Assembly: GCA_965203985.1 (NCBI GenBank)
Contig: CBDBDS010000013.1
Location: 517,802-581,801, forward strand
Source of the DNA: Dehalococcoidia bacterium
GTDB lineage: Bacteria; Chloroflexota; Dehalococcoidia; Lucifugimonadales; UBA3495
Reading direction: 5' to 3'
Length of the DNA stretch: 64,000 nucleotides
Below are positions 30,254-61,348 of this stretch, piece after piece. The notes beneath the pieces were generated by a model that was given only the letters and a program-made list of their open reading frames with translations, had not been told where the DNA came from and ran no database searches. The position numbers were made by a program, and so were the translations under genes. Every line of letters begins with the position of its first letter. The first letter of the stretch is position 1.

Positions 30254-30856
30254 ATGACCACCATCGAAATCTCCGACCGCGTGGTCGATCGTATCCACCG
30301 CCGGATCCGCCGCCTCCCGCCCGGGCTCCAGGAGCACTGCCAGCGGGTGGAGCAGATCGCCCGTGGCCTCGCCGAGCGCCACGGGCAGGACGTGGAAGCT
30401 ATCGGCCTGACGGGTCTGGCCCACGACGCCACCAAGCACTTCTCCGGCTTGGAGAACCTGCTCCGCATGGAAGAGTACGACCTGCCTCCGGTCACCGAGT
30501 TCGAGCGGCGCAACCCGGACATCCTCCACGGCATGGTGGGCGCGGAGTTGCTCAAGCGCGAGGACGGCCTGGGTCATCCTCAACTCTACAACGCCATCTA
30601 CTGGCACACCACCGGCGACCCGACCGGCGGCGACTCCATCGCCCACATCGTGTTCCTGGCCGACAAGCTGGACCCGGTAAAGGTGAAGCGTTACCCCTGG
30701 CAGGGCGAGCTGAAGGAACTGGCGGAGAACGACCTCCCCGCCGCCATGATCATGTTCCTGACCAGGAATGTGGTCCGGATGCTGGACAAAGGCTCGGCGG
30801 TGCACCCCGCGTCGATTGAAGCGCGGAACACGTTGCTGTTGGCGACAGCATCGTAG
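30254..30856 (+). CDS. yqeK: HD-domain protein, YqeK-like bis(5'-nucleosyl)-tetraphosphatase
   Basis: GLAHDATKH (HD), ILHGMVGAELL, FLADKLDP. Confidence 0.65.
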   Translation: MTTIEISDRVVDRIHRRIRRLPPGLQEHCQRVEQIARGLAERHGQDVEAIGLTGLAHDATKHFSGLENLLRMEEYDLPPVTEFERRNPDILHGMVGAELLKREDGLGHPQLYNAIYWHTTGDPTGGDSIAHIVFLADKLDPVKVKRYPWQGELKELAENDLPAAMIMFLTRNVVRMLDKGSAVHPASIEARNTLLLATAS

Positions 30857-30897: not shown

Positions 30898-31188
30898 ATG
30901 AAGTACGATGTTGTTGTCTGGCGTGGGACCCTGTCCGACGGTTCCACCTGCTACGCTGCAGTTTGCCCGGCTATCAATTATGCTCACGGTCAAGGCGACA
31001 CTGAGGCCGAAGCCCTGGCTGAAGCGGCGGCCACCATGGCCGGCTTTCTGGAAAGGATGCCCGGCGTAGCTAAGTCGGGTCAGGCGGCTCAAGACGAGCT
31101 GACGGAAAAACTCGCTGATTTGGCCTCGGAAGGCATCGCCCATTGGGTGCGTCAGGTTGAACCTGCTATTGCGCCGACGCTCGCATAA
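30898..31188 (+). CDS. HicB-like antitoxin (UPF0150 fold), array 1 copy 1
   Basis: MKYDVVVWRGTLSDGSTCYAAVCPAINYAHGQGDTEAEAL, the classic HicB N-terminal pattern. Confidence 0.7.
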   Translation: MKYDVVVWRGTLSDGSTCYAAVCPAINYAHGQGDTEAEALAEAAATMAGFLERMPGVAKSGQAAQDELTEKLADLASEGIAHWVRQVEPAIAPTLA

Positions 31189-31190
31189 AG

Positions 31191-31493
31191 ATGGTCAGGA
31201 TAGCTAATGTCAAGACCCGAGAATTGCTCCGTTTGCTGCGAAGGATGAGGTTCGTTCAGGACAACCGTGACCATATCTATTTTTACCATGAATGGTTGAG
31301 GACGAGCGAAGGCCGGTTGTGGACGCAAGTTTCTCATGGTGACAAAGAGATTGACGCGGACTTGATGGGCGACATCGCCATCAAGCAGCTCAAGATGAAC
31401 AGCGCCGAAGAATTCCGCGCCGCCCTCCGGGGCAATATCCCTCGCCGGTATCTCGACCCCGACGCGCCGTGGGACGGCCAGCCCCTGGACTAG
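31191..31493 (+). CDS. HicA-like toxin with C-terminal tail, array 1 copy 1
   Basis: VKTRELLRLLRRMRF...RDHIYFYH...VSHGDKEIDADLMGDIAIKQLKM, plus the tail EFRAALRGNIPRRYLDP. Confidence 0.65.
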   Translation: MVRIANVKTRELLRLLRRMRFVQDNRDHIYFYHEWLRTSEGRLWTQVSHGDKEIDADLMGDIAIKQLKMNSAEEFRAALRGNIPRRYLDPDAPWDGQPLD

Positions 31494-31509
31494 CCTGAGG
31501 ATGTGAAAC

Positions 31510-31800
31510 ATGGAATTTGACGTTGTCTTTTGGCGCGGAACCTTGTCCGATGGTTCCACCTGCTACGCGGCGATTTGCCCGGCCATCGATCATGCTCATG
31601 GCCAGGGAGACACGGAAGCTGAGGCTCTGGCTGACGTTGCGGATACCATGGCCATCTATCTGGATCATGAGCCGGAAAGATTCAAAACCGGACAAGGAGC
31701 TCAGGATGCGATCCGTAGATTGACGGAGGAACTGGACGAGAATGGAACCTCCTGCTGGGTGAAGCAGGTCGCCCCGGCGCGCAATCGAGTGCCCGCTTAG
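31510..31800 (+). CDS. HicB-like antitoxin, array 1 copy 2
   Basis: MEFDVVFWRGTLSDGSTCYAAICPAIDHAHGQGDTEAEAL. Confidence 0.7.
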   Translation: MEFDVVFWRGTLSDGSTCYAAICPAIDHAHGQGDTEAEALADVADTMAIYLDHEPERFKTGQGAQDAIRRLTEELDENGTSCWVKQVAPARNRVPA

Positions 31801-31803
31801 GTT

Positions 31804-32091
31804 ATGGTTAGGATTGCCAACGTCAAGACCAGGCAGTTGCTTCGATTACTGCGCAGGATGGGCTTTACACAAAGCAACCGGGACCATGCTTACTTCATAC
31901 ATGCTTGGCTGCGCCTGCGGACAAAGGTGTCGCATGGAGACAAAGAAGTGGACGCCGATCTGATGGGAGAGATCGCTATCGTGCAACTCAAAATGAACAG
32001 CGCCGAGGAGTTTCGCGCCGCCCTCCGGGGCGATATTCCACGCCGCTATCTCGATCCCGACGCGCCGTGGGACGGCCAGCCCCTGGACTAG
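31804..32091 (+). CDS. HicA-like toxin with C-terminal tail, array 1 copy 2
   Basis: Paralog of 31191..31493; the last 36 nt including the stop are identical between the two copies. Confidence 0.65.
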   Translation: MVRIANVKTRQLLRLLRRMGFTQSNRDHAYFIHAWLRLRTKVSHGDKEVDADLMGEIAIVQLKMNSAEEFRAALRGDIPRRYLDPDAPWDGQPLD

Positions 32092-32099
32092 TGAACAAC

Positions 32100-32429
32100 A
32101 TGACCGCACAGCTTGAAATAACCCCCGAAGCCGCTCAGTTCATCCGTCATAAAGGCGGGCAGGCCGTCATCGACCTGATCTGCTGGAAGGGTTGAAGCGG
32201 CGAGTCCGTCGAGGTATCGGTCGATACCAACGTGCGCCGTCGCCGCAGCCTGGAGTCCTACGACCCCGCCAGCCAGGACGACATCACCCTGTACCTGGCC
32301 CCCGGCATCGCCGAATACGCTCAGCAGGTCAGCCTGTCCATGAGCCGGTTCCTGCTCTTCCGGAACCTGAAGGCCACCATCGTGCTACCCCACGGCGTCA
32401 CGCTGGGCCGGCGCGCCTCGCTCGTCTAG
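32100..32429 (+). CDS. Candidate small selenoprotein (in-frame TGA at 32193-32195), or a disrupted gene
   Basis: ATG 32100, 31 codons, TGA, then 77 more codons in the same frame to TAG 32427-32429. Track ORFs 31905..32195 and 32232..32429 share this frame. Local context is C-W-K-G-TGA-S-G. Confidence 0.45.
32197..32246 (+). promoter_or_regulatory. SECIS-like stem-loop downstream of the in-frame TGA
   Basis: Outer helix gcggcga/tcgccgc (32197-32203 / 32240-32246). Inner hairpin cgt-cga-ggtatc-[ggtc]-gatacc-a-acg (32207-32232) starts 11 nt after the TGA. Confidence 0.4.
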
Positions 32430-38243: not shown

Positions 38244-39740
38244 TCACACCCGCAGTATCCCCCGTATCCGCAACTGCTGTTTCAGGTAGCCCATGTCACG
38301 GTTGCCCTTGATGGCGTTGCAGGTGTGGCACATCAGCCACAGGTTGGCTACGGAGACCTGGCCGCCCCGGGACCGCGGCGTGATGTGATCGATGGTCAGC
38401 ACGTGCAGGGGCAATTCGTACTCGCAGCCGGCGCACCTGCCGTGTTGACTGCGATACAGCAAGGCCCGGTCCGACTGAGGGTCAGCCGGGCTCAATAACG
38501 TCAGGTCGTTTCTTCGGGGAGGCTCCCGCAGCACCATTGGGGTCCAGTCCTCCCACGGCTTTTCGTCGCCACCGTTCATCGGTATTTGCAATTCCCGCCT
38601 GGCCCGTTGCGTCAGCACCTCGGCAGCCTGTGGCAGTATGTCAATGCCAATCCATTGCCGATCCAGCTTTTCGGCGGCGATGCACGCCGTGGCGCAGCCG
38701 CAGAACGGATCCAGCACCAGGTCGCCCGGGCTGGACGAGGCGTTGATGATGCGCTCCAGCAGCGCCAGGGGCTTTTGCGTCCGCCATCCCGTCCGCTCAA
38801 CGGACCGGGGCGGTATGGGACGTATGTCAGTCCACTGGTTGGTGGGGACCTGACCCGTGTTACTGGCGAGGTAGCGCTTCAGGGATGGCATAACATTGTC
38901 GCCTGGGTAATAAATCAACCCTGCTGCATCGAGCGCATCCAAACGCTCCAGTGGACTGGCAATGTCGCGGTAGCCGGAAGTTACATTCCCGTCAATCCAG
39001 GCGGCGTAACTTCCCGTCATGGGAACTGCCCAGTGCCGCCCGATTCGGTTAGGGTCATGCCCGCGCCAGGGCTGTCCCGTTTCCCCATAACGCAATTCTG
39101 CCGCGGTAAGGTCTCCCAAGCGGTACGCGCCCCGCTCGTCTTCGTGCCGGTAAAACTGTTCTACATAGTCGTCGTCCAGCGGAATACGGACTTCGTTTGA
39201 GTTTATCCTGGGCTGCCGGCTGTAAAACAGAATGATGTCGCGCACCCTGCCGAAGTTTCGTGGATCGTTATGCGCGGAAGTGCGTTGCCAGCTTATTTGC
39301 GCCCGGTAATTGTTTGCCCCAAAGATCGCGTCCATCACCGATTGCAGGTAGTGGCCGGCCGTATCGTCACAGTGCAGGTAGATGCTGCCCGCCGGTTTCA
39401 GCACCCGGTGGAGTTCCAGCAACCGGATGCTCATGAACGTCAGATAGCCGGCCATGCTCTCCCCGTGGGACAGCCGAGCGCCGTTGACGAGGTGAAACAA
39501 CGCCGGCAGCCGGTATTCGATCTCATCGATCCACTCCTCTTTCATATCGTCCAGCGTCCATACGTCGTCGAACTCGGCGCCCCGGGCCTCGCTGTCCAGC
39601 GGCGCGGCGTAGGTCCGGTTGGAGTTGAACGGCGGGTCCAGATAAATGAGATCAACGCACTCGGAGTTGATCCCCCGCAGGATGTCCAGGTTGTCCCCGG
39701 TGAAAATGGTGCGGCTGGGCACGTTGCACGCGCTGGGCAT
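38244..39740 (-). CDS. DNA methyltransferase (N6A/N4C, beta-class order) fused to a C-terminal HNH nuclease domain
   Basis: Motif IV LIYLDPPFNSN precedes motif I VLDPFCGCATA. C-terminal CAGCEYELP...IDHITPRSRGG...NLWLMCHTCNAIKG is an HNH domain with CxxC pairs. Confidence 0.8.
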   Translation of the reverse strand: MPSACNVPSRTIFTGDNLDILRGINSECVDLIYLDPPFNSNRTYAAPLDSEARGAEFDDVWTLDDMKEEWIDEIEYRLPALFHLVNGARLSHGESMAGYLTFMSIRLLELHRVLKPAGSIYLHCDDTAGHYLQSVMDAIFGANNYRAQISWQRTSAHNDPRNFGRVRDIILFYSRQPRINSNEVRIPLDDDYVEQFYRHEDERGAYRLGDLTAAELRYGETGQPWRGHDPNRIGRHWAVPMTGSYAAWIDGNVTSGYRDIASPLERLDALDAAGLIYYPGDNVMPSLKRYLASNTGQVPTNQWTDIRPIPPRSVERTGWRTQKPLALLERIINASSSPGDLVLDPFCGCATACIAAEKLDRQWIGIDILPQAAEVLTQRARRELQIPMNGGDEKPWEDWTPMVLREPPRRNDLTLLSPADPQSDRALLYRSQHGRCAGCEYELPLHVLTIDHITPRSRGGQVSVANLWLMCHTCNAIKGNRDMGYLKQQLRIRGILRV

Positions 39741-53320: not shown

Positions 53321-55861
53321 TCAGACTTCCCGGCGGCGGAGAGCATACCACGCCAGCGGGCCGCGAACCGTCTTCCAGGCCTCGACCACTGCGGCGTCGG
53401 CATCCGGGCGGGGATCCTCGCGCCCGGCATACGTATGGCGCGCGTAGGCATTGACGATCCGCCCGATGTCCGGCGCCTGCTCCGGGAGGGCCGCAGCCAG
53501 CATCCCTGCCCACTGGTGCGGCGTTTGGTGCTCCCGCAGCGGTATAGATGCCAGCCGGCCCAGGCGACGCAGGCGGCGGTACGCGCCCGGCACGTCGCTG
53601 GGCGGCGCGAACAGCCACCGCCACAGCGCCCAGGCGCTGACTGCCAACGCCGCCACGACCGCGGCGACGCCCCCGATCCAGGGCAGGAAGTTACGCGCAG
53701 TGGAGGTCCAACCGGTGTTGACGGCGTCGCCGGCCACGAGATCGGAATCCTCCAAACCGTCTTCAAAGTCTTCGCATTCTTCTTCGATCTCGCAGAGCAG
53801 ATCGTCGACATCGCTGATGTCGGTGGCCGGCGATGCCCTCCGCGCCTGCTCTTCGGGGGGAATGGCCACCGGGATGTCCCTGCCGGGCGTGGGTTCAAAC
53901 GGGATCCAGCCGTAGCCGGGGAAAAACACCTCGGTCCAGCCGTGGCTGTGGCGGTCCGTAACCACGTAGATGTGCGAACCGTCGGCGAGATTCCCGGTGG
54001 TGTAGCCGGTGGTCATGCGGGCCGGCACGCCCAGGCTTCGCATCAGGACGGTCATGGCGGATCCGAAATATTCGCTGTAGCCCTGACCGCTTTCAAACAG
54101 GAAGTAGTCCACGCCGTCCGCGCCGAAAGGAGGCGGATCGATGGCCAGGTTGTAGGTGTAGCTGTTCTTGAGATACTGCTCCACCGCCACGGCCTTGTCG
54201 TAAGGCGTTTCCGCTCCGCCTGTGATTGACCGCGCCAGCTCCGCCACCCGCGGCGGCATGTCCGGGGGCAACTGGGTGTATCGTGACCACAGCCAGGGCG
54301 CGTATTCCTCGCCAGCGGTGCGCAATTCCTCCGGCTCTGCGGAGGACACGGACGCGGTGAGCTGGTAGGGCTCTCCAGCCTCGGCAGCGCCGCCGGCCGC
54401 GCGCACGGCCAGCACGTCCGGTTCAGAGGGTACGATTTCGCCGATCACGGCCTCGACGACGCTGCCGGAGGTATCCCGCTCGATCGATTCCAGCACGAAG
54501 GACGTGGGCAGCACGCCTGCCACGGTTTCCGCGGCAGCGAAGGCGTCCGCGGAAACGGCGTCGCGCAGACCCTCCACCGCCAGCTGGAGGGCCGACGGCA
54601 GCAGGTTGGTCTCGCTATCCAGGGTCGGGTCGATGACGTATCGGGGCGAATCGAAGGTTTCGACACGCACGTCGCGATTGGCGCCGATCACCTGCCCGCC
54701 GGCGAAGAGGCTCCGGCTGTCGTAGTTGGGTATGACCTCAAAGGTCACGTTGAACCGTTCCTGGTAGGGGGCGGGCGCGCTGTACTCAGGCGCCCAGCCG
54801 GGCTCCCGGAGCACGGTGCCCTCGGACAGCCAACCCTCGTGCGTGTATTTCGCGTAAGAACGCGCTTTCCAGTACAACGGCACCGGGGAGTTGACCTGCA
54901 ACACCGGCGTGTCCGTGGGGTTGATTGTGCCCTGGAAGGCCATGGTGTCGCCCCAGATGCGGTAGGGCAGCGGGCGCCGCGCCGGCAGTCCGGCGAACAG
55001 CCGGTTGAAGTCTTCCTCCCACGAGACCAGCGGAGCGCGGGTCAGCGAATAAAACGCGTTGGCTGGGCCCCACTGCCCTCCCACCGGCAGCAGGAAGGCG
55101 ATCACCAGCGCCACGATGGCCACTATGGATGTGTCGCTGACAGTCAGGATGCCCAGGTGCCCGTCGTAGATGCGGCCCTCCGCGTCCCAGCGTTGGCGGG
55201 AGCGCATCGACTGGACCCAGCCCACCAGCAGCAGGCCGGTGAAAACGTAGATCGCCAGGTAGATGCTGGCAGTGTCCGGCAGGAAGGTGAGGTTGGACAT
55301 CAGGCCCACCGCACCCAGGGCGAACACGCCCCAGAAGTTCCGGTAGCGGAAGAATACCCATCCCGCCAGGTAGCCGGAGAGCCACGCGGCCATCATCAGA
55401 CCCACCGCGAAGGGCAGGGGGTCCACGCTGATACCTTCGTTGCGGGCTGCCAAAACCCACAGGCCCAGGCGCTCGAACAGTTCCGCCGCGGTGGCCACCT
55501 GCAACTCGTCCGGCGCCGCGATAACCATCTGCCAAATGATGACGCCGATGCCGATGAGCAGCCCGATGGGCAGCACCGCCGCGGTCCACAGGCGGATGCG
55601 CGTCAGCGGGATGGCGGTCAGCACCGCCAGGATCATGACCAGCACCAGCGACGGGGTTGGCGCCCAGTCCGCCACCTCCACCGACCATACCACGACGATC
55701 ATGTTGAGGAGCAGCAGCCCGGCGGCGACCCATCCATCCGGCGGTCGCAGGGTGGTCAGGGCCGATAGCAACCAGCGGGCCGCGCCGGCTCCGCTCCACG
55801 CCGGATTTGCCTCCGGCGTGGGCTGTGCCAAGGTAGGGGACGGGGCGGTTATCGTAGCCAT
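53321..55861 (-). CDS. Transglutaminase-like domain membrane protein (TgpA-like)
   Basis: Multi-TM N-terminus. Core GQGYSEYFGSAMTVLMRSLGVPARMTTGY ... HSHGWTEVFFPGYGWIPFEPTP. Confidence 0.8.
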   Translation of the reverse strand: MATITAPSPTLAQPTPEANPAWSGAGAARWLLSALTTLRPPDGWVAAGLLLLNMIVVVWSVEVADWAPTPSLVLVMILAVLTAIPLTRIRLWTAAVLPIGLLIGIGVIIWQMVIAAPDELQVATAAELFERLGLWVLAARNEGISVDPLPFAVGLMMAAWLSGYLAGWVFFRYRNFWGVFALGAVGLMSNLTFLPDTASIYLAIYVFTGLLLVGWVQSMRSRQRWDAEGRIYDGHLGILTVSDTSIVAIVALVIAFLLPVGGQWGPANAFYSLTRAPLVSWEEDFNRLFAGLPARRPLPYRIWGDTMAFQGTINPTDTPVLQVNSPVPLYWKARSYAKYTHEGWLSEGTVLREPGWAPEYSAPAPYQERFNVTFEVIPNYDSRSLFAGGQVIGANRDVRVETFDSPRYVIDPTLDSETNLLPSALQLAVEGLRDAVSADAFAAAETVAGVLPTSFVLESIERDTSGSVVEAVIGEIVPSEPDVLAVRAAGGAAEAGEPYQLTASVSSAEPEELRTAGEEYAPWLWSRYTQLPPDMPPRVAELARSITGGAETPYDKAVAVEQYLKNSYTYNLAIDPPPFGADGVDYFLFESGQGYSEYFGSAMTVLMRSLGVPARMTTGYTTGNLADGSHIYVVTDRHSHGWTEVFFPGYGWIPFEPTPGRDIPVAIPPEEQARRASPATDISDVDDLLCEIEEECEDFEDGLEDSDLVAGDAVNTGWTSTARNFLPWIGGVAAVVAALAVSAWALWRWLFAPPSDVPGAYRRLRRLGRLASIPLREHQTPHQWAGMLAAALPEQAPDIGRIVNAYARHTYAGREDPRPDADAAVVEAWKTVRGPLAWYALRRREV

Positions 55862-55908: not shown

Positions 55909-57234
55909 CTACGCAACCCGGCCGGCTACCGGCTCGGCGCCGGCGGCATCCGTTGTGTCCGGGGGAACGCTGCCGCCTTCCGGCATCCTGGCGCCTCCCA
56001 CTGCCAGCGGACGGGACAGGGCCTGGTTGATGTCCCCGTCGCGCCGCACGATGTAGATGGGTATGTCGTGCTGGGCCAGGTACTCGGCCACGGCCTGGCC
56101 GGTGGTGCCGGTGCTCGATTCGCCGTCGGGACCGGTGAACGACGTGTGGTCCACGTAGCATACCGTGACGTTGATCCCCTGCCGGCGCAGGCTGACCAGC
56201 GCGGAAGTCCACTCCGGCCGGCGCGAGGCGGTGATGACCATGATCGTGTTGAAGCCCGACAGGTGGGGGCGCAGGTCGTAGATGAACCGCTCCAGCGACA
56301 GCGTCCCGTCCGCGCGAATGCCGGCCAGGGTCTCCATCAGGATGCCCAGCTGGGCCGGCCGGCGGTCCGGGTTGAGCATCCACAGGTCGGCGGAGTTGGC
56401 GGCCAGGCCGACGGGCACGGCCGTTTCGTCCCAGTGCTGCACCAGCGATGCCGCAACGGTCACCGCCAGTTCTTCGGTGTTGTCCGGCGGCTCGCCCAGG
56501 TGGGAGCGCCGGTCCATGTCCAGCAACACCCACGCCTGGGCCGACACGCCGATGTCGAACTCTTTCACCATCAGGCGGTTCATACGGGCGGTGTACGGCC
56601 AGTGGATGCGCCGCAGGCTGTCGCCGTGGGCGTAGTCCCGCACCGTGGACGATTCGGGGGTGATGGCCGGCGTGCGGCGGGAGAAGACCGAGTCGCTGGG
56701 CAGGTTGGCGAAGCGACGGTCCAGATCGGGCAGCGGCACGGTTTTGGGCAGCACCGTGTAGGACTGGTCGTTGAGGAACGTCCGGCTCAGGCGGAAGAGC
56801 CCGAAGGGGTCGCGGGCCGTGACCCGCACCCGCCCGGTGCGATAGATGCCCCGCCGTGACAGGTAGGTGGCGATGCGGAAGGAGCGCACCTGCCCCTTGA
56901 CCAGCGCCACGGTGCGCCCGCCCGGCTCGGCCAGGTCGGTGTCCTCCACCACTTCCAGCCACGACTTGGGCAGTCGCGTCCGGTTGATCATCTGGATCTG
57001 CCCTTCCAGGTAATCGCCGACGCGGCCACGGGTTCCCAGCCGGGTCAGCCGCACCTCGATGCCGCGCAGGTTGAGCCAGGCCCAGCCGTAGCCGATTATC
57101 ACCAGCAGCACGAGCGTGAACAGCAACCGGTAGAAGAAGGAAAACCCCGTTCCCAGCGAGTAGAACAGCACCGCCAGGATCAGCAGGCTGAACAGTATTT
57201 TGCGCCGGTGCTGGCTGATTAAAGACTTGATCAT
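55909..57234 (-). CDS. DUF58 domain-containing protein
   Basis: VRDYAHGDSLRRIHWPYTARMNRLMVKEFD. Start placed at the ATG 3 codons inside ORF 55909..57243. Confidence 0.8.
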   Translation of the reverse strand: MIKSLISQHRRKILFSLLILAVLFYSLGTGFSFFYRLLFTLVLLVIIGYGWAWLNLRGIEVRLTRLGTRGRVGDYLEGQIQMINRTRLPKSWLEVVEDTDLAEPGGRTVALVKGQVRSFRIATYLSRRGIYRTGRVRVTARDPFGLFRLSRTFLNDQSYTVLPKTVPLPDLDRRFANLPSDSVFSRRTPAITPESSTVRDYAHGDSLRRIHWPYTARMNRLMVKEFDIGVSAQAWVLLDMDRRSHLGEPPDNTEELAVTVAASLVQHWDETAVPVGLAANSADLWMLNPDRRPAQLGILMETLAGIRADGTLSLERFIYDLRPHLSGFNTIMVITASRRPEWTSALVSLRRQGINVTVCYVDHTSFTGPDGESSTGTTGQAVAEYLAQHDIPIYIVRRDGDINQALSRPLAVGGARMPEGGSVPPDTTDAAGAEPVAGRVA

Positions 57235-57247
57235 GGCGAACAACCTT

Positions 57248-57520
57248 TTAGTTGTCCCAGAATGCAGGATTGGTAAACCGTTCCGGGATATTCCCGTTCA
57301 TAGATTCGCGAAACTCGTTAACGGTCATGCGTAGCTGGGTGCTTATAATCTTTCCCATGAACGCAGCGTCTAACTCTTTATTGCCGAAAGAGACGAACGT
57401 GTGCAACCCCAGCCCGTAGTGTCGGTAACGCCAGTGGTCGTTTCGTGCGGTTTCCACGAATCCCATGCGCAGAAGCAGGTTCCGGAGTTCCCGGGGCCGG
57501 ACATTGCCGTAGCGTGGCAT
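57248..57520 (-). CDS. HicA-like toxin with C-terminal tail, array 2 copy 3
   Basis: MPRYGNVRPRELRNLLLRMGFVETARNDHWRYRH...VSFGNKELDAAFMGKIISTQLRMTVNEFRESMNGNIPERF. Confidence 0.65.
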   Translation of the reverse strand: MPRYGNVRPRELRNLLLRMGFVETARNDHWRYRHYGLGLHTFVSFGNKELDAAFMGKIISTQLRMTVNEFRESMNGNIPERFTNPAFWDN

Positions 57521-57825
57521 CAGACGTCGGCCGGTTCCGGGATGGCCAAGGTCACCCGATGCACGCGGTATGAAATGCCTTCGTCGGCCAGTTCTCGCAT
57601 CAGGTCCGCCATTTCCGCCTCGGCGGCTGGTTCGTCCGCCAGCGAGACCCCGTCCGGCCAGGGGTTGCTGATGGCATCGACCATCATGGCGGTGATGCCG
57701 TCCAGCGCCTCCGTCTCGGTATCCCCCTGCGCTCCAACACCAAGTACGTACGAGCACCAGGCAGAGTAGCACGTCGATCCGTCGGATAACGTACCTTCCC
57801 ACGTTATAACATCAAAGGTGTGCAT
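57520..57825 (-). CDS. HicB-like antitoxin, array 2 copy 3
   Basis: MHTFDVITWEGTLSDGSTCYSAWCSYVLGVGAQGDTETEAL. ATGA overlap with the downstream HicA-like gene. Confidence 0.7.
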   Translation of the reverse strand: MHTFDVITWEGTLSDGSTCYSAWCSYVLGVGAQGDTETEALDGITAMMVDAISNPWPDGVSLADEPAAEAEMADLMRELADEGISYRVHRVTLAIPEPADV

Positions 57826-57869
57826 GTTCTGCTCTCTCTTTGGTGTCAAGAAGCGAACGGCCGGGCGGC

Positions 57870-58142
57870 TCAGTTGTTCCAAAATGCAGGGTTGGTGAAC
57901 TGCTCGGGTATATTCCCGTTCATGGCTTCGCGAAACTCGTTAACGGTCATGCCTAGCTGTGTAGTGATAATTTCGCCCATCAAGGCCGCTCGGATCTCTT
58001 GGTTGCCAAAGGACACTTTAGTACGTAAGCCGAGGCCCGGGTGACGATAACGCCAATGATCGTTGTGGGCGGTTTCGACGAACCCCATCCTGGCTAGTAA
58101 ACGTCGTAGCTCACGCGGCCGGACATTGGCGTATCGCGGCAT
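57870..58142 (-). CDS. HicA-like toxin with C-terminal tail, array 2 copy 2
   Basis: MPRYANVRPRELRRLLARMGFVETAHNDHWRYRH...NEFREAMNGNIPEQF. Confidence 0.65.
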   Translation of the reverse strand: MPRYANVRPRELRRLLARMGFVETAHNDHWRYRHPGLGLRTKVSFGNQEIRAALMGEIITTQLGMTVNEFREAMNGNIPEQFTNPAFWNN

Positions 58143-58447
58143 CAGACGCTGGCGGGTAGTTCAGTCGAGATCGATACCTGGTGCATCTTGTAAGGGATAC
58201 CCTCAGATAAAAGCTCCTCGATGATCCCGGCCATTTCGGTCGCGGCTTCCTCGGCATTTGCCAAAGAAACGCCATCATCCCACGGGTGCAGGATTACATC
58301 CGTCATCACCGAGGTGATATCCGCCAAAGCCTCTTCTTCCGTATCCCCCTGCCCCCATACTCCTACGACGTAGGAGCACCACGCTCCATATCCCATGGAT
58401 CCATCCTCCGATGGATCTTCCCAAACCAGTACTTCAAAGGTGTGCAT
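58142..58447 (-). CDS. HicB-like antitoxin, array 2 copy 2
   Basis: MHTFEVLVWEDPSEDGSMGYGAWCSYVVGVWGQGDTEEEAL; ATGA overlap. Confidence 0.7.
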   Translation of the reverse strand: MHTFEVLVWEDPSEDGSMGYGAWCSYVVGVWGQGDTEEEALADITSVMTDVILHPWDDGVSLANAEEAATEMAGIIEELLSEGIPYKMHQVSISTELPASV

Positions 58448-58521
58448 GCTCTTATCTCTCTTTGATGTCGCAGCACGCAGCTGGCGAATGGGTGCCAACG
58501 CGACGGCTTTCCAAATGTTGC

Positions 58522-58794
58522 TCAGTTGTTCCAGAACTCAGGGCTGGTGAACCGTTCAGGAATATCCCCGTTCATAGCTTCGCGAAATTCATCAACGGTC
58601 ATGCGTAGCTGCTTGGTTATGATATTGCCCATAAAGTCCGATCTGATCTCTTTGTTTCCGAAAGACATCCGGGTGCGGAGACCAAGTCCGACATGGAAAT
58701 AGTGGCGATGATGGTTCCTTGCGACTTCGATGAACCCCATCCGCAGCAGCAAACGGTGGAGCTCCGCTGGCCGCACGTTAGCGTAACGAGGCAT
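58522..58794 (-). CDS. HicA-like toxin with C-terminal tail, array 2 copy 1
   Basis: MPRYANVRPAELHRLLLRMGFIEVARNHHRHYFH...DEFREAMNGDIPERF. Confidence 0.65.
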   Translation of the reverse strand: MPRYANVRPAELHRLLLRMGFIEVARNHHRHYFHVGLGLRTRMSFGNKEIRSDFMGNIITKQLRMTVDEFREAMNGDIPERFTSPEFWNN

Positions 58795-59099
58795 CAGATG
58801 TTGGCCAACTCGGCGTCTTCTACCGAGACCGTCCGTGTCCACCATGGGGTGCCTTCGGTCTCATATTCGCGGATCATGTCCGCCATTTCCGCCGCCGCTG
58901 CCTCGGGGTCAACCAGGCTTTCGGCCAGGTCTGCCGGATCGTTCACGACGTCGGTCATCATCAACCTGACTTCCGTCAGGGCTTCCTCCTCCGTGTCGCC
59001 CTGCCCCCATACGCCATACACGTACGAGCACCACGCTGCGTAGCAGGTCGAACCGTCGGACAACTCGCCTTTCGAAACCAAAACATCAAAGGTGTACAT
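58794..59099 (-). CDS. HicB-like antitoxin, array 2 copy 1
   Basis: MYTFDVLVSKGELSDGSTCYAAWCSYVYGVWGQGDTEEEAL; ATGA overlap. Confidence 0.7.
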   Translation of the reverse strand: MYTFDVLVSKGELSDGSTCYAAWCSYVYGVWGQGDTEEEALTEVRLMMTDVVNDPADLAESLVDPEAAAAEMADMIREYETEGTPWWTRTVSVEDAELANI

Positions 59100-59131
59100 A
59101 TTCTGATCCCCCTCGTACTGATGGCAACAGT

Positions 59132-60163
<1,032 letters not shown>

Positions 60164-60274: not shown

Positions 60275-60610
60275 ATGTCACCCCCCGAAAACTGCCGCCC
60301 GGTGGAAGTCACGGGGCAGGTGCGCGGCGTCCGGATGAACCCGCCTGGCGAAGGCGGCGGCGGAACGTTTCAACTGCTGCTGGAAAACGGCGACGTTATC
60401 ATCAGTCCCTATCCCGAAGAATGGCACGTTGATGTTGGAGCGGCGTTGCAGTCCAACGATATGCGCCGTGCCATTGTTTCCGGCATCGGTGAGTACTCCC
60501 CCGACGGCAAACTGCTGCGCATCCGCGAGATGGGATCCTTCGACGTGGCCCAGATACCCGATTGGCAAGTCGCTTTCCGTCGCCGTATGAAGCTGCGGGC
60601 CAACTCATGA
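60275..60610 (+). CDS. Hypothetical protein X1 (candidate partner of PIN 60607..61038)
   Basis: 111 aa; the stop overlaps the PIN start (ATGA). No antitoxin family recognised. Paralog of 61043..61348. Confidence 0.55.
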   Translation: MSPPENCRPVEVTGQVRGVRMNPPGEGGGGTFQLLLENGDVIISPYPEEWHVDVGAALQSNDMRRAIVSGIGEYSPDGKLLRIREMGSFDVAQIPDWQVAFRRRMKLRANS

Positions 60611-61038
60611 GCGACTACTTTGGCGATGCCTCATACTGTATTGCTCAGATTGACCCGGACGACGAGTTTCATCGGCAATCTCAGGAATACGCCGCCTTGA
60701 TTGCGTTAGAAAATCGTCGAGTTGTGACCACCCAACTGGTGCTTAACGAAGTTCTCAACCCTCGTAGTGGTACTACTGCACGGCAGCGGCGGGCTGCTAT
60801 TGAGTTGGTTGACCGGATTGGACGTGATACGCAGGTTGATATCGTTCCCCAGTCCCCAGAGCAATTCACTGAAGCTCTGAATATGCTCAGGACTGCGGTA
60901 GATGACAAGGAATGGAGCATCACCGACTGCGCCAGTTTCCTGACGATGCGCCAATTCAGCATTCAGGAAGCGCTGACCAGCGACCGGCATTTTACGCAGG
61001 CCGGCTTCACTGTAATGCTGAACCGGGCGAGGACATAA
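60607..61038 (+). CDS. PIN-domain protein (VapC-like)
   Basis: YCIAQIDPDDEF, LVLNEVLN, SITDCASF, LTSDRHF: the four acidic PIN positions. Confidence 0.7.
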   Translation: MSDYFGDASYCIAQIDPDDEFHRQSQEYAALIALENRRVVTTQLVLNEVLNPRSGTTARQRRAAIELVDRIGRDTQVDIVPQSPEQFTEALNMLRTAVDDKEWSITDCASFLTMRQFSIQEALTSDRHFTQAGFTVMLNRART

Positions 61039-61042
61039 CACC

Positions 61043-61348
61043 ATGGCAGAGCGGAAGAACGAAAATTACCGGCGGATGGAAGTCCGGGGCCAGGTTCGCG
61101 CCGTCCAAATGGACCCACCAACCCCGGACGACGCCCCCCAGGGCGGCATCTTCGATCTGCTTCTGGAAAACGGGGATATTATCGTCAGCCCGTATCCGGC
61201 GAAGTGGCACATTGAGGTAGTCGGGGCTTTCCAGGCCAACGACGTCCGCCGCGCCATAGTTTCCGGCATCGGCGAATACTCTGCCGACGGCCGGCTGCAA
61301 CGCATCCATGAACTCGAATCCTTCGCCATGGTCTGGGCGCACGAGTAA
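61043..61348 (+). CDS. Hypothetical protein X2, paralog of X1
   Basis: Shares VRGQVR.V.M.PP...LLLENGD(V/I)I(I/V)SPYP..WH(V/I).V..A.Q.ND.RRAIVSGIGEYS.DG.L.RI.E..SF with X1. Confidence 0.5.
   Translation: MAERKNENYRRMEVRGQVRAVQMDPPTPDDAPQGGIFDLLLENGDIIVSPYPAKWHIEVVGAFQANDVRRAIVSGIGEYSADGRLQRIHELESFAMVWAHE

Follow-up and report, generated by a model that had tools for sequence, protein, structure and literature searches.

HicAB-like toxin-antitoxin cassettes, probably operon passengers, between moxR and DUF58 in a SAR202-type Dehalococcoidia genome

The usual picture of a toxin-antitoxin (TA) module is a two-gene operon that is autonomous, represses itself and moves horizontally. TA genes are also co-transcribed with host genes, as is the case of mazEF downstream of relA, and TA cassettes occur in the promoter-less gene-cassette arrays of chromosomal integrons. 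We analysed a stretch of 64,000 nucleotides, hereafter called the window, from a Dehalococcoidia metagenome-assembled genome of the SAR202 type (sponge-type), whose congeners include sponge-derived bins. Its minus strand carries a gene triad coding for a MoxR-type AAA+ ATPase, a DUF58 protein and a transglutaminase-like membrane protein, and three small gene pairs are found between the first two of these genes. An earlier note on this DNA had called them HicB-like/HicA-like antitoxin-toxin pairs. We consider it likely that they are three paralogous type II TA cassettes of a narrow, lineage-specific branch of HicAB, carried as passengers of the operon and not as components of the MoxR system. 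This interpretation is built on fold, synteny, selection and decay.

The HicAB systems taken as references are those of Escherichia coli (HicAB, 6hpb), Yersinia pestis (HicA3B3, 4p78), Burkholderia pseudomallei (HicAB, 6g26) and Streptococcus pneumoniae (HicBA, 5yrz). HicB has been reported to 'often contain' a DNA-binding domain, which is thus a frequent but not universal feature; by themselves, HicB domains probably do not bind DNA, and only some of them are fused to ribbon-helix-helix (RHH) or Xre domains (PMC2701414).

Structure prediction provided the clearest assignment. The AF2 model of the toxin of the second pair (T2; pLDDT 91.1) has an alpha-beta-beta-beta-alpha fold that resembles those of dsRNA-binding domains, with helices at residues 9-18 and 52-62 and strands at residues 22-26, 29-34 and 39-44. 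Its first PDB matches in Foldseek are HicA proteins (1whz, 6hpb_A, 4p78_C, 6g26_F and 5yrz_B), with probabilities of 0.8-1.0 and target-normalised TM-scores of 0.64-0.84. For the model of the corresponding antitoxin (A2; pLDDT 87.9), the first 11 Foldseek matches are all HicB chains (6g26, 6g1n, 6g1c and 4p7d), with 6g26_A at the top; 6g1c is an isolated N-terminal domain. Profile searches against PDB sequences also ranked HicA 1whz first for the toxin (E 0.057) and HicB 6g1c first for the antitoxin (E 0.054). In addition, the family phrog_353, named 'toxin', matches T2 (E 6.6e-7) and T1 (E 0.0016), and JGI names two relatives of the antitoxin 'RNase H-like HicB family nuclease'. Residue H29 of the toxins aligns with the His residue of the GGH motif of 1whz and is invariant in 26 family members, in which the preceding residues are N-D/H, not G-S. 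Thus, the earlier assignment was borne out by the predicted folds, albeit below curated sequence thresholds, and the models indicate that the pairs are HicAB by fold and keep the putative catalytic His. The antitoxin is predicted to comprise only the N-terminal domain of HicB, which would bind the toxin. No domain for binding DNA, of either the RHH or the helix-turn-helix (HTH) type, was matched in it in Pfam, and the topology of the N-terminal domain fills all 101 residues.

Two additional pairs on the plus strand of the window belong to the same protein family, as had been proposed, which was supported by protein alignments and an assembly-wide comparison. Identity is 70-81% among the three minus-strand toxins and 47-49% between these and the two on the plus strand; for the antitoxins, the corresponding values are 50-54% and 31-40%. 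Apart from these five pairs, the whole assembly contains no close members of the family, and one distant pair is present on another contig. Residues E69, F70, R71, G76, I78, P79, P85 and W88 are common to all five toxins. Several of them belong to a conserved, confidently modelled C-terminal tail of ~19 residues that extends beyond the end of 1whz, in which G76, I78, P79, P85 and W88 are invariant. The tail motif that the earlier note had attributed to all five toxins, NEFRE.MNG(N/D)IPE(R/Q)F, is found in the three minus-strand proteins, but the plus-strand toxins have the homologous, different EEFRAALRG(N/D)IPRRY. The tail was also matched nine times in a 1480-residue repeat protein (P0125) through the 'MDRISKGDIPEKIT' ('GDIPEKIT') motif; we read these as HAMP-like repeats and the likeness as probably due to chance. 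Both the toxin and the antitoxin family are small and unnamed; the toxin has 59 clusters at 90% identity, and a profile search of 1.84 billion representatives retrieved only 34 proteins at E <= 1e-3. No copies of the family were matched in plasmid and phage collections, and PADLOC gave no match to either protein.

To compare the locus among relatives, MoxR and DUF58 were used as probes in 40 of them, and the fetched loci were checked by tblastn. Of 41 relatives, 39 have an orthologue of moxR. In ~10 congeners, this gene and DUF58 are contiguous, and in ~30 others they are separated by a spacer with one to three cassettes. The gap lengths fall into discrete classes: 12-143 nt at empty sites (G001, G002, G003, G007, G010, G012, G017, G018, G022 and G023), ~620-670 nt with one pair (G016, G020, G024, G006, G027, G035 and others), ~1270 nt with two pairs (G004, G008, G009, G014, G019, G031, G033 and others) and ~1900 nt with three pairs (the source genome, G000, and G005). 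Of the 11 outgroup genera, 10 have gaps of 49-122 nt, and the eleventh harbours an unrelated 680-nt spacer. All 25 close loci from GTDB species representatives sit in the moxR-DUF58 gap; hence, the arrangement is not due to chance. Empty sites consist of the moxR stop, 14-26 nt and the DUF58 start. The empty site of G001 is made up of the first 9 nt on the left and the whole spacer on the right of occupied sister sites, and thus gain or loss of cassettes is a precise event at the level of the unit. The comparison confirmed the expectation that the array interrupts an otherwise contiguous moxR-DUF58 pair, and its presence varies within the genus.

The gap of G011 also contains a gene for a 498-residue methyltransferase-HNH protein upstream of the pair (L022, G011:C1:1110220-1113450; 582-2078, moxR-to-DUF58). 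This protein is 71% identical to the product of a solitary methyltransferase-HNH gene at 38244-39740 on the minus strand of the window, and it seems that this gene moves between variable sites. The spacer thus also admits selfish or defence-type genes of other kinds.

The two plus-strand pairs occupy a similar position in another operon. They start 41 nt past a gene coding for a putative HD-domain protein and are followed, 8 nt past the last toxin, by a gene for a putative CC/Se-type selenoprotein. Orthologues of the HD gene are found directly upstream of plus-type cassettes in 17 congeners by coordinates, as verified by tblastn in 15 fetched loci, and all 15 of these fetched relatives have one or two cassettes of the sister subfamily in the HD/selenoprotein slot (site 2, the moxR-DUF58 gap being site 1). 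In seven congeners devoid of plus-type toxins, the HD and selenoprotein genes are adjacent; six of these sites are empty, with gaps of ~22-250 nt, and that of G021 contains an orphan antitoxin. The family as a whole thus inhabits intercistronic spacers of conserved operons, which argues against a specific tie with MoxR.

Site 2 shows further variation. At L071 (G036:C1:1730700-1737800), the order is HD gene, pair, selenoprotein N-terminal fragment, HD fragments, second pair and selenoprotein gene, which suggests a segmental duplication that included the ends of the host genes. Past the selenoprotein gene, one to four tandem genes of the Uma2 family are found in convergent orientation in almost every congener (L059-L080; 32426-34186 on the minus strand of the window), with variable copy numbers.

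Both genes of the cassettes are under constraint. Within orthologous types, the median dN/dS values are 0.07-0.19 at dS ~0.7-1.6 (median near 1), for toxins and antitoxins alike, which indicates that both are maintained by purifying selection. Decay, where it is found, affects the toxin. In G021 (L020 and L076), the toxin has been lost and an intact HicB-like antitoxin kept at both the moxR/DUF58 and the HD/selenoprotein sites; these lone antitoxins may be orphan 'anti-addiction' antitoxins or represent a late stage of decay. An internal deletion (L043) and a frameshift (L055) are found in toxins next to intact antitoxins, and site 2 of G011 ends with an orphan antitoxin. In G006 (L025, G006:C5:478020-479460), the toxin open reading frame (ORF) is full-length, but two mutually compensating frameshifts have altered its first ~12 residues and both conserved His residues are changed to Tyr (NDYWRYRY), with an intact antitoxin; by its sequence, this toxin looks disarmed. 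The deletion in G013 takes the 5' part of the toxin gene and trims the end of the antitoxin. L053 was considered as a candidate for a broken antitoxin next to an intact toxin, but both genes are damaged, with a frameshift in the antitoxin and an ATG to ATA change of the toxin start. None of the decayed cassettes examined combines a broken antitoxin with a toxin that is still intact. The same toxin-first asymmetry was described for hicAB in Haemophilus influenzae strains (bioRxiv 10.1101/330480). Such one-sided decay is the pattern that would be predicted for a genuine toxin, with the modest statistical weight of ~6 events.

A tree of concatenated pairs resolved the cassettes into strongly supported clades that we call alpha, beta, gamma, delta and epsilon. 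Alpha always adjoins moxR and beta always adjoins DUF58; epsilon occurs only as a single cassette (G020, G024 and G035), and the G011 pair is divergent. Arrays composed of the four ordered types are all subsequences of alpha-delta-gamma-beta: alpha-gamma-beta in the source genome, alpha-delta-gamma in G005, alpha-beta in G014, G004 and G008, alpha-gamma in G009, G019 and G033, and delta-gamma in G031. A recent in situ tandem duplication was ruled out by the 68-74% DNA identity of the three minus-strand units, the saturation of dS between paralogous units and the presence of orthologues in other species. Empty sites are nested among occupied ones in a tree of the flanks, and arrays of two or three cassettes are confined to a crown clade. 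L032, a near-identical relative, lacks beta, and the alignment breakpoints map to where the toxin genes are conserved, at their 3' end. The MoxR protein of L031 is 99% identical but its alpha cassette only ~82% identical in protein, which points to allelic exchange. The simplest reading of these sequence comparisons would be an old multi-cassette array with differential loss. The cassettes would have inserted early in the genus into the ~14-nt moxR-DUF58 intercistronic spacer and then diversified into ordered types, with vertical inheritance accompanied by loss and allelic exchange at the cassette level. The family is locked to two loci and confined to one genus, while its copy number ranges from zero to three and its alleles are exchanged.

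The arrangement of the minus-strand genes bears on their expression. The order is moxR, three antitoxin-toxin pairs, DUF58 and the transglutaminase-like gene, and the successive gaps from moxR to DUF58 are 32, 74, 44 and 13 nt; the single strand and the gaps of 32 and 13 nt at the two ends were exactly as first described. At variance with the earlier note, which had reported an ATGA overlap in each pair, the junction between antitoxin and toxin genes is cTGATGcc in all three pairs, i.e. the TGA stop and ATG start overlap by 1 nt instead of 4 nt. The TGATG overlap is also found in the parsed site-1 cassettes of relatives, with the exception of G011, whose genes are separated by 4 nt. An in-frame TTG is present at 57243, ahead of the DUF58 ATG. 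The first bases of the 32-nt spacer match the ancestral moxR-DUF58 spacer, by comparison with the empty sites of G003 and G001 and the spacers of relatives. No terminator-like site was found in a scan between moxR and DUF58.

Co-transcription with the host operon is the simplest reading of the shared strand, the tiny gaps and the lack of a terminator-like site, and on this sequence evidence it is probably correct. Since the antitoxin has no operator-binding domain and there is no room for a promoter of their own, the cassettes would be transcribed within the moxR-DUF58-transglutaminase mRNA from the moxR promoter. Each antitoxin has a ribosome-binding site of its own, from which it would be translated, and each toxin would be translationally coupled to it via the TGATG overlap. 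The HicB-like protein would then sequester the HicA-like protein. If the supply of antitoxin dropped, upon shut-off of the operon, proteolysis or phage takeover, the toxin would cleave RNA and arrest growth. The role of the cassettes might thus be addiction, possibly abortive infection. Co-transcription, toxicity, neutralisation and the trigger are the parts of this scheme that we infer.

An alternative is that each pair forms an independent TA operon that lies here by chance and is driven by a promoter of its own, situated either in the 73-nt spacers or at the 3' end of the gene upstream. Across species, the sequence of the spacers between cassettes is conserved, and a promoter scan from moxR to DUF58 identified one weak sigma-70-like match (TTGCCA-16-CAGAAT) in the spacer between moxR and A1, both of which would fit this view. 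However, shuffled sequences gave a mean of 1.2 matches, and the -10 element of this one abuts the start codon. Moreover, the antitoxin lacks a DNA-binding domain that could control such a promoter, and read-through would still be required for the DUF58 and transglutaminase genes, whose ancestral distance from moxR is 14 nt. We therefore regard autonomous operons as unlikely.

Another view is that the pairs serve the MoxR-DUF58-transglutaminase system as functional accessories, for example with the HicA-like RNase processing the operon mRNA or tuning the dosage of DUF58 and transglutaminase, or with MoxR remodelling the HicB-HicA complex. The exclusive and long association of the IPERF-tail subfamily with the moxR-DUF58 site, the purifying selection on both genes and the lack of an autoregulatory DNA-binding domain would be in line with such roles. 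However, close species have between zero and three copies, with empty sites nested among occupied ones, and decay starts with the toxin, as is typical of a real toxin. The earlier note had also suggested that the pairs regulate the MoxR system; this idea is not supported, given their absence from ~10 congeners and all outgroup genera, and the presence of a sister subfamily in the unrelated HD/selenoprotein operon. Accessory functions of this kind thus appear quite improbable.

We find it equally hard to favour the idea that the proteins are domesticated, non-toxic RNA-binding proteins with HicA and HicB folds. Divergence below the family thresholds, the novel conserved tail, vertical inheritance and the lack of plasmid or phage copies could all be explained in this manner. 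Nevertheless, intact copies invariably keep the putative catalytic His, the copy with a scrambled N-terminus has Tyr in its place, and the toxin is lost or damaged in every decayed cassette, none of which has an intact toxin beside a broken antitoxin.

Finally, the two arrays had been described as inverted relative to each other and as possible recombination substrates for a large inversion; they are indeed mutually inverted members of one protein family, but not inverted repeats at the DNA level (longest exact match 13 nt, best segments 49-66 nt at 71-76% identity), and as the two host operons are in the same convergent orientation, 20-26 kb apart, in G014, G009 and G005 and 0.4-1.2 Mb apart in other species, inversion of the intervening 25 kb by these arrays can practically be dismissed.

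Several observations nonetheless weigh against our interpretation of the pairs as TA passengers. The best score with the Pfam HicA_toxin family (PF07927; COG1724) is 18.9 bits (E 0.0016) for a cut-off of 27, and there is no NCBIfam HicA match; for the antitoxin, no match to HicB (COG1598) was obtained in Pfam or NCBIfam at E <= 1. The Foldseek E-values are modest as well (1e-2 to 1e-3), because the proteins are small. A promoter may be present within the 3' part of moxR or in one of the 73-nt spacers. Lastly, purely selfish TA modules do not usually persist vertically for long at fixed sites while under purifying selection, nor are they usually absent from plasmid and phage collections, and both features could reflect some host function.

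Assuming that the pairs are TA cassettes, it is possible that they have adopted an 'operon-hitchhiker' lifestyle, an idea that we put forward tentatively. Promoterless and operatorless HicBA cassettes would survive in the tiny spacers of the moxR/DUF58 and HD/selenoprotein operons, with their expression and the release of their toxins tied to the host operon, and clean loss would occur only by precise deletion or allelic replacement. If true, this would represent a TA module kept for the lifetime of a genus without autoregulation or horizontal mobility.

The features of the two loci are collected in Table 1. Directly upstream of moxR and divergent from it, a PIN-domain (VapC-like) gene is found between two paralogous ORFs of ~100 residues (60275-61348 on the plus strand); the latter are without Pfam match.

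Table 1. Genes and spacers of the two cassette-bearing operons in the window. A, antitoxin; T, toxin.
Feature	Positions	Strand	Comments
moxR (MoxR-type AAA+ ATPase)	59132-60163	-	Upstream gene of the operon; Pfam AAA_3 E 2.4e-63, AAA_lid_2 E 6e-24
Spacer, moxR stop to A1 start, 32 nt	59100-59131	-	Contains GAGGGGGA ribosome-binding site
A1, HicB-like antitoxin, 101 residues, type alpha	58794-59099	-	Family alignment; type by tree; N-terminal HicB domain only (predicted)
T1, HicA-like toxin, 90 residues, type alpha	58522-58794	-	C-terminal tail; invariant H29; Pfam HicA_toxin below threshold
Spacer, T1 to A2, 74 nt	58448-58521	-	Ends in AAAGAGAGA ribosome-binding site
A2, HicB-like antitoxin, type gamma	58142-58447	-	AF2 model m095e565c7b43 and Foldseek; profile match to HicB 6g1c
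T2, HicA-like toxin, type gamma	57870-58142	-	AF2 and Foldseek; phrog_353
Spacer, T2 to A3, 44 nt	57826-57869	-	Shortened version of the 73-nt inter-cassette spacer
A3, HicB-like antitoxin, type beta	57520-57825	-	Family alignment, tree
T3, HicA-like toxin, type beta	57248-57520	-	Family alignment, tree, phrog_353
DUF58 gene	55909-57234	-	ATG start 13 nt past T3 stop (12-60 nt past the moxR stop in relatives with an empty site); Pfam DUF58 E 1e-13
Transglutaminase-like membrane protein with DUF4129	53321-55861	-	Last gene of the triad; Pfam Transglut_core E 3.3e-26
HD-domain gene	30254-30856	+	ORF; HD label read from the sequence only; host gene upstream of the second array
Plus-strand array, two pairs of the sister subfamily	30898-32091	+	
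A, first plus-strand pair	30898-31188	+	
T, first plus-strand pair	31191-31493	+	
A, second plus-strand pair	31510-31800	+	
T, second plus-strand pair	31804-32091	+	
Selenoprotein gene (putative)	32100-32429	+	8 nt past last plus-strand toxin; tblastn synteny

These cassettes define a HicAB branch in which the antitoxin appears to have dropped its DNA-binding half and the toxin to have gained a tail, and which purifying selection has maintained across the genus at two fixed positions within operons. Its ordered cassette types are lost and swapped as whole units. If co-transcription is true, the locus would clearly illustrate how, in nature, the expression of TA genes can be left to the promoters of host operons. 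With five pairs of paralogues, this single genome would also offer a ready set for studying how TA specificity is kept separate between paralogues. Current Pfam and NCBIfam models miss both proteins, and such cassettes therefore go unannotated.

The comparison with known systems situates the branch. As in HicAB, the toxin has the alpha-beta-beta-beta-alpha fold with a conserved His, the antitoxin has an N-terminal partial RNase H-like fold, and the genes are small, adjacent and coupled, with a presence that varies among relatives. Unlike in HicAB, the antitoxin is devoid of the C-terminal RHH or HTH domain that all the solved reference HicB proteins have, the toxin carries the conserved ~19-residue tail and similarity is below the Pfam and NCBIfam cut-offs. 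In addition, the cassettes form arrays of one to three at fixed intra-operon sites with no plasmid or phage copies found, rather than autonomous, autoregulated operons. The best match of the toxin in both sequence and structure is TTHA1913 of Thermus thermophilus (1whz), a stand-alone HicA fold, with 32% identity over 78 columns and a TM-score of 0.77 on the target. They share the His residue of the GGH/NDH motif and the start of an extra helix (LTEEEF vs MTVDEF), but 1whz stops where the conserved AMNG(N/D)IPERFTNPxFW tail begins.

With integron TA cassettes, the pairs have in common that they are small tandem TA units, apparently reliant on an upstream promoter, whose number varies at one site. 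In contrast with integrons, RNAalifold detected no attC-like or other consensus structure in 14 aligned spacers (an integrase was not searched for), and the cassettes are hosted by housekeeping operons, in their intercistronic spacers. The order of the cassettes is also collinear across species, which argues for differential loss and not for integrase-driven shuffling. Thus, the cassettes are not a new kind of system; they are set apart by their domain-minimal antitoxin, their tailed toxin and their ordered arrays locked inside operons.

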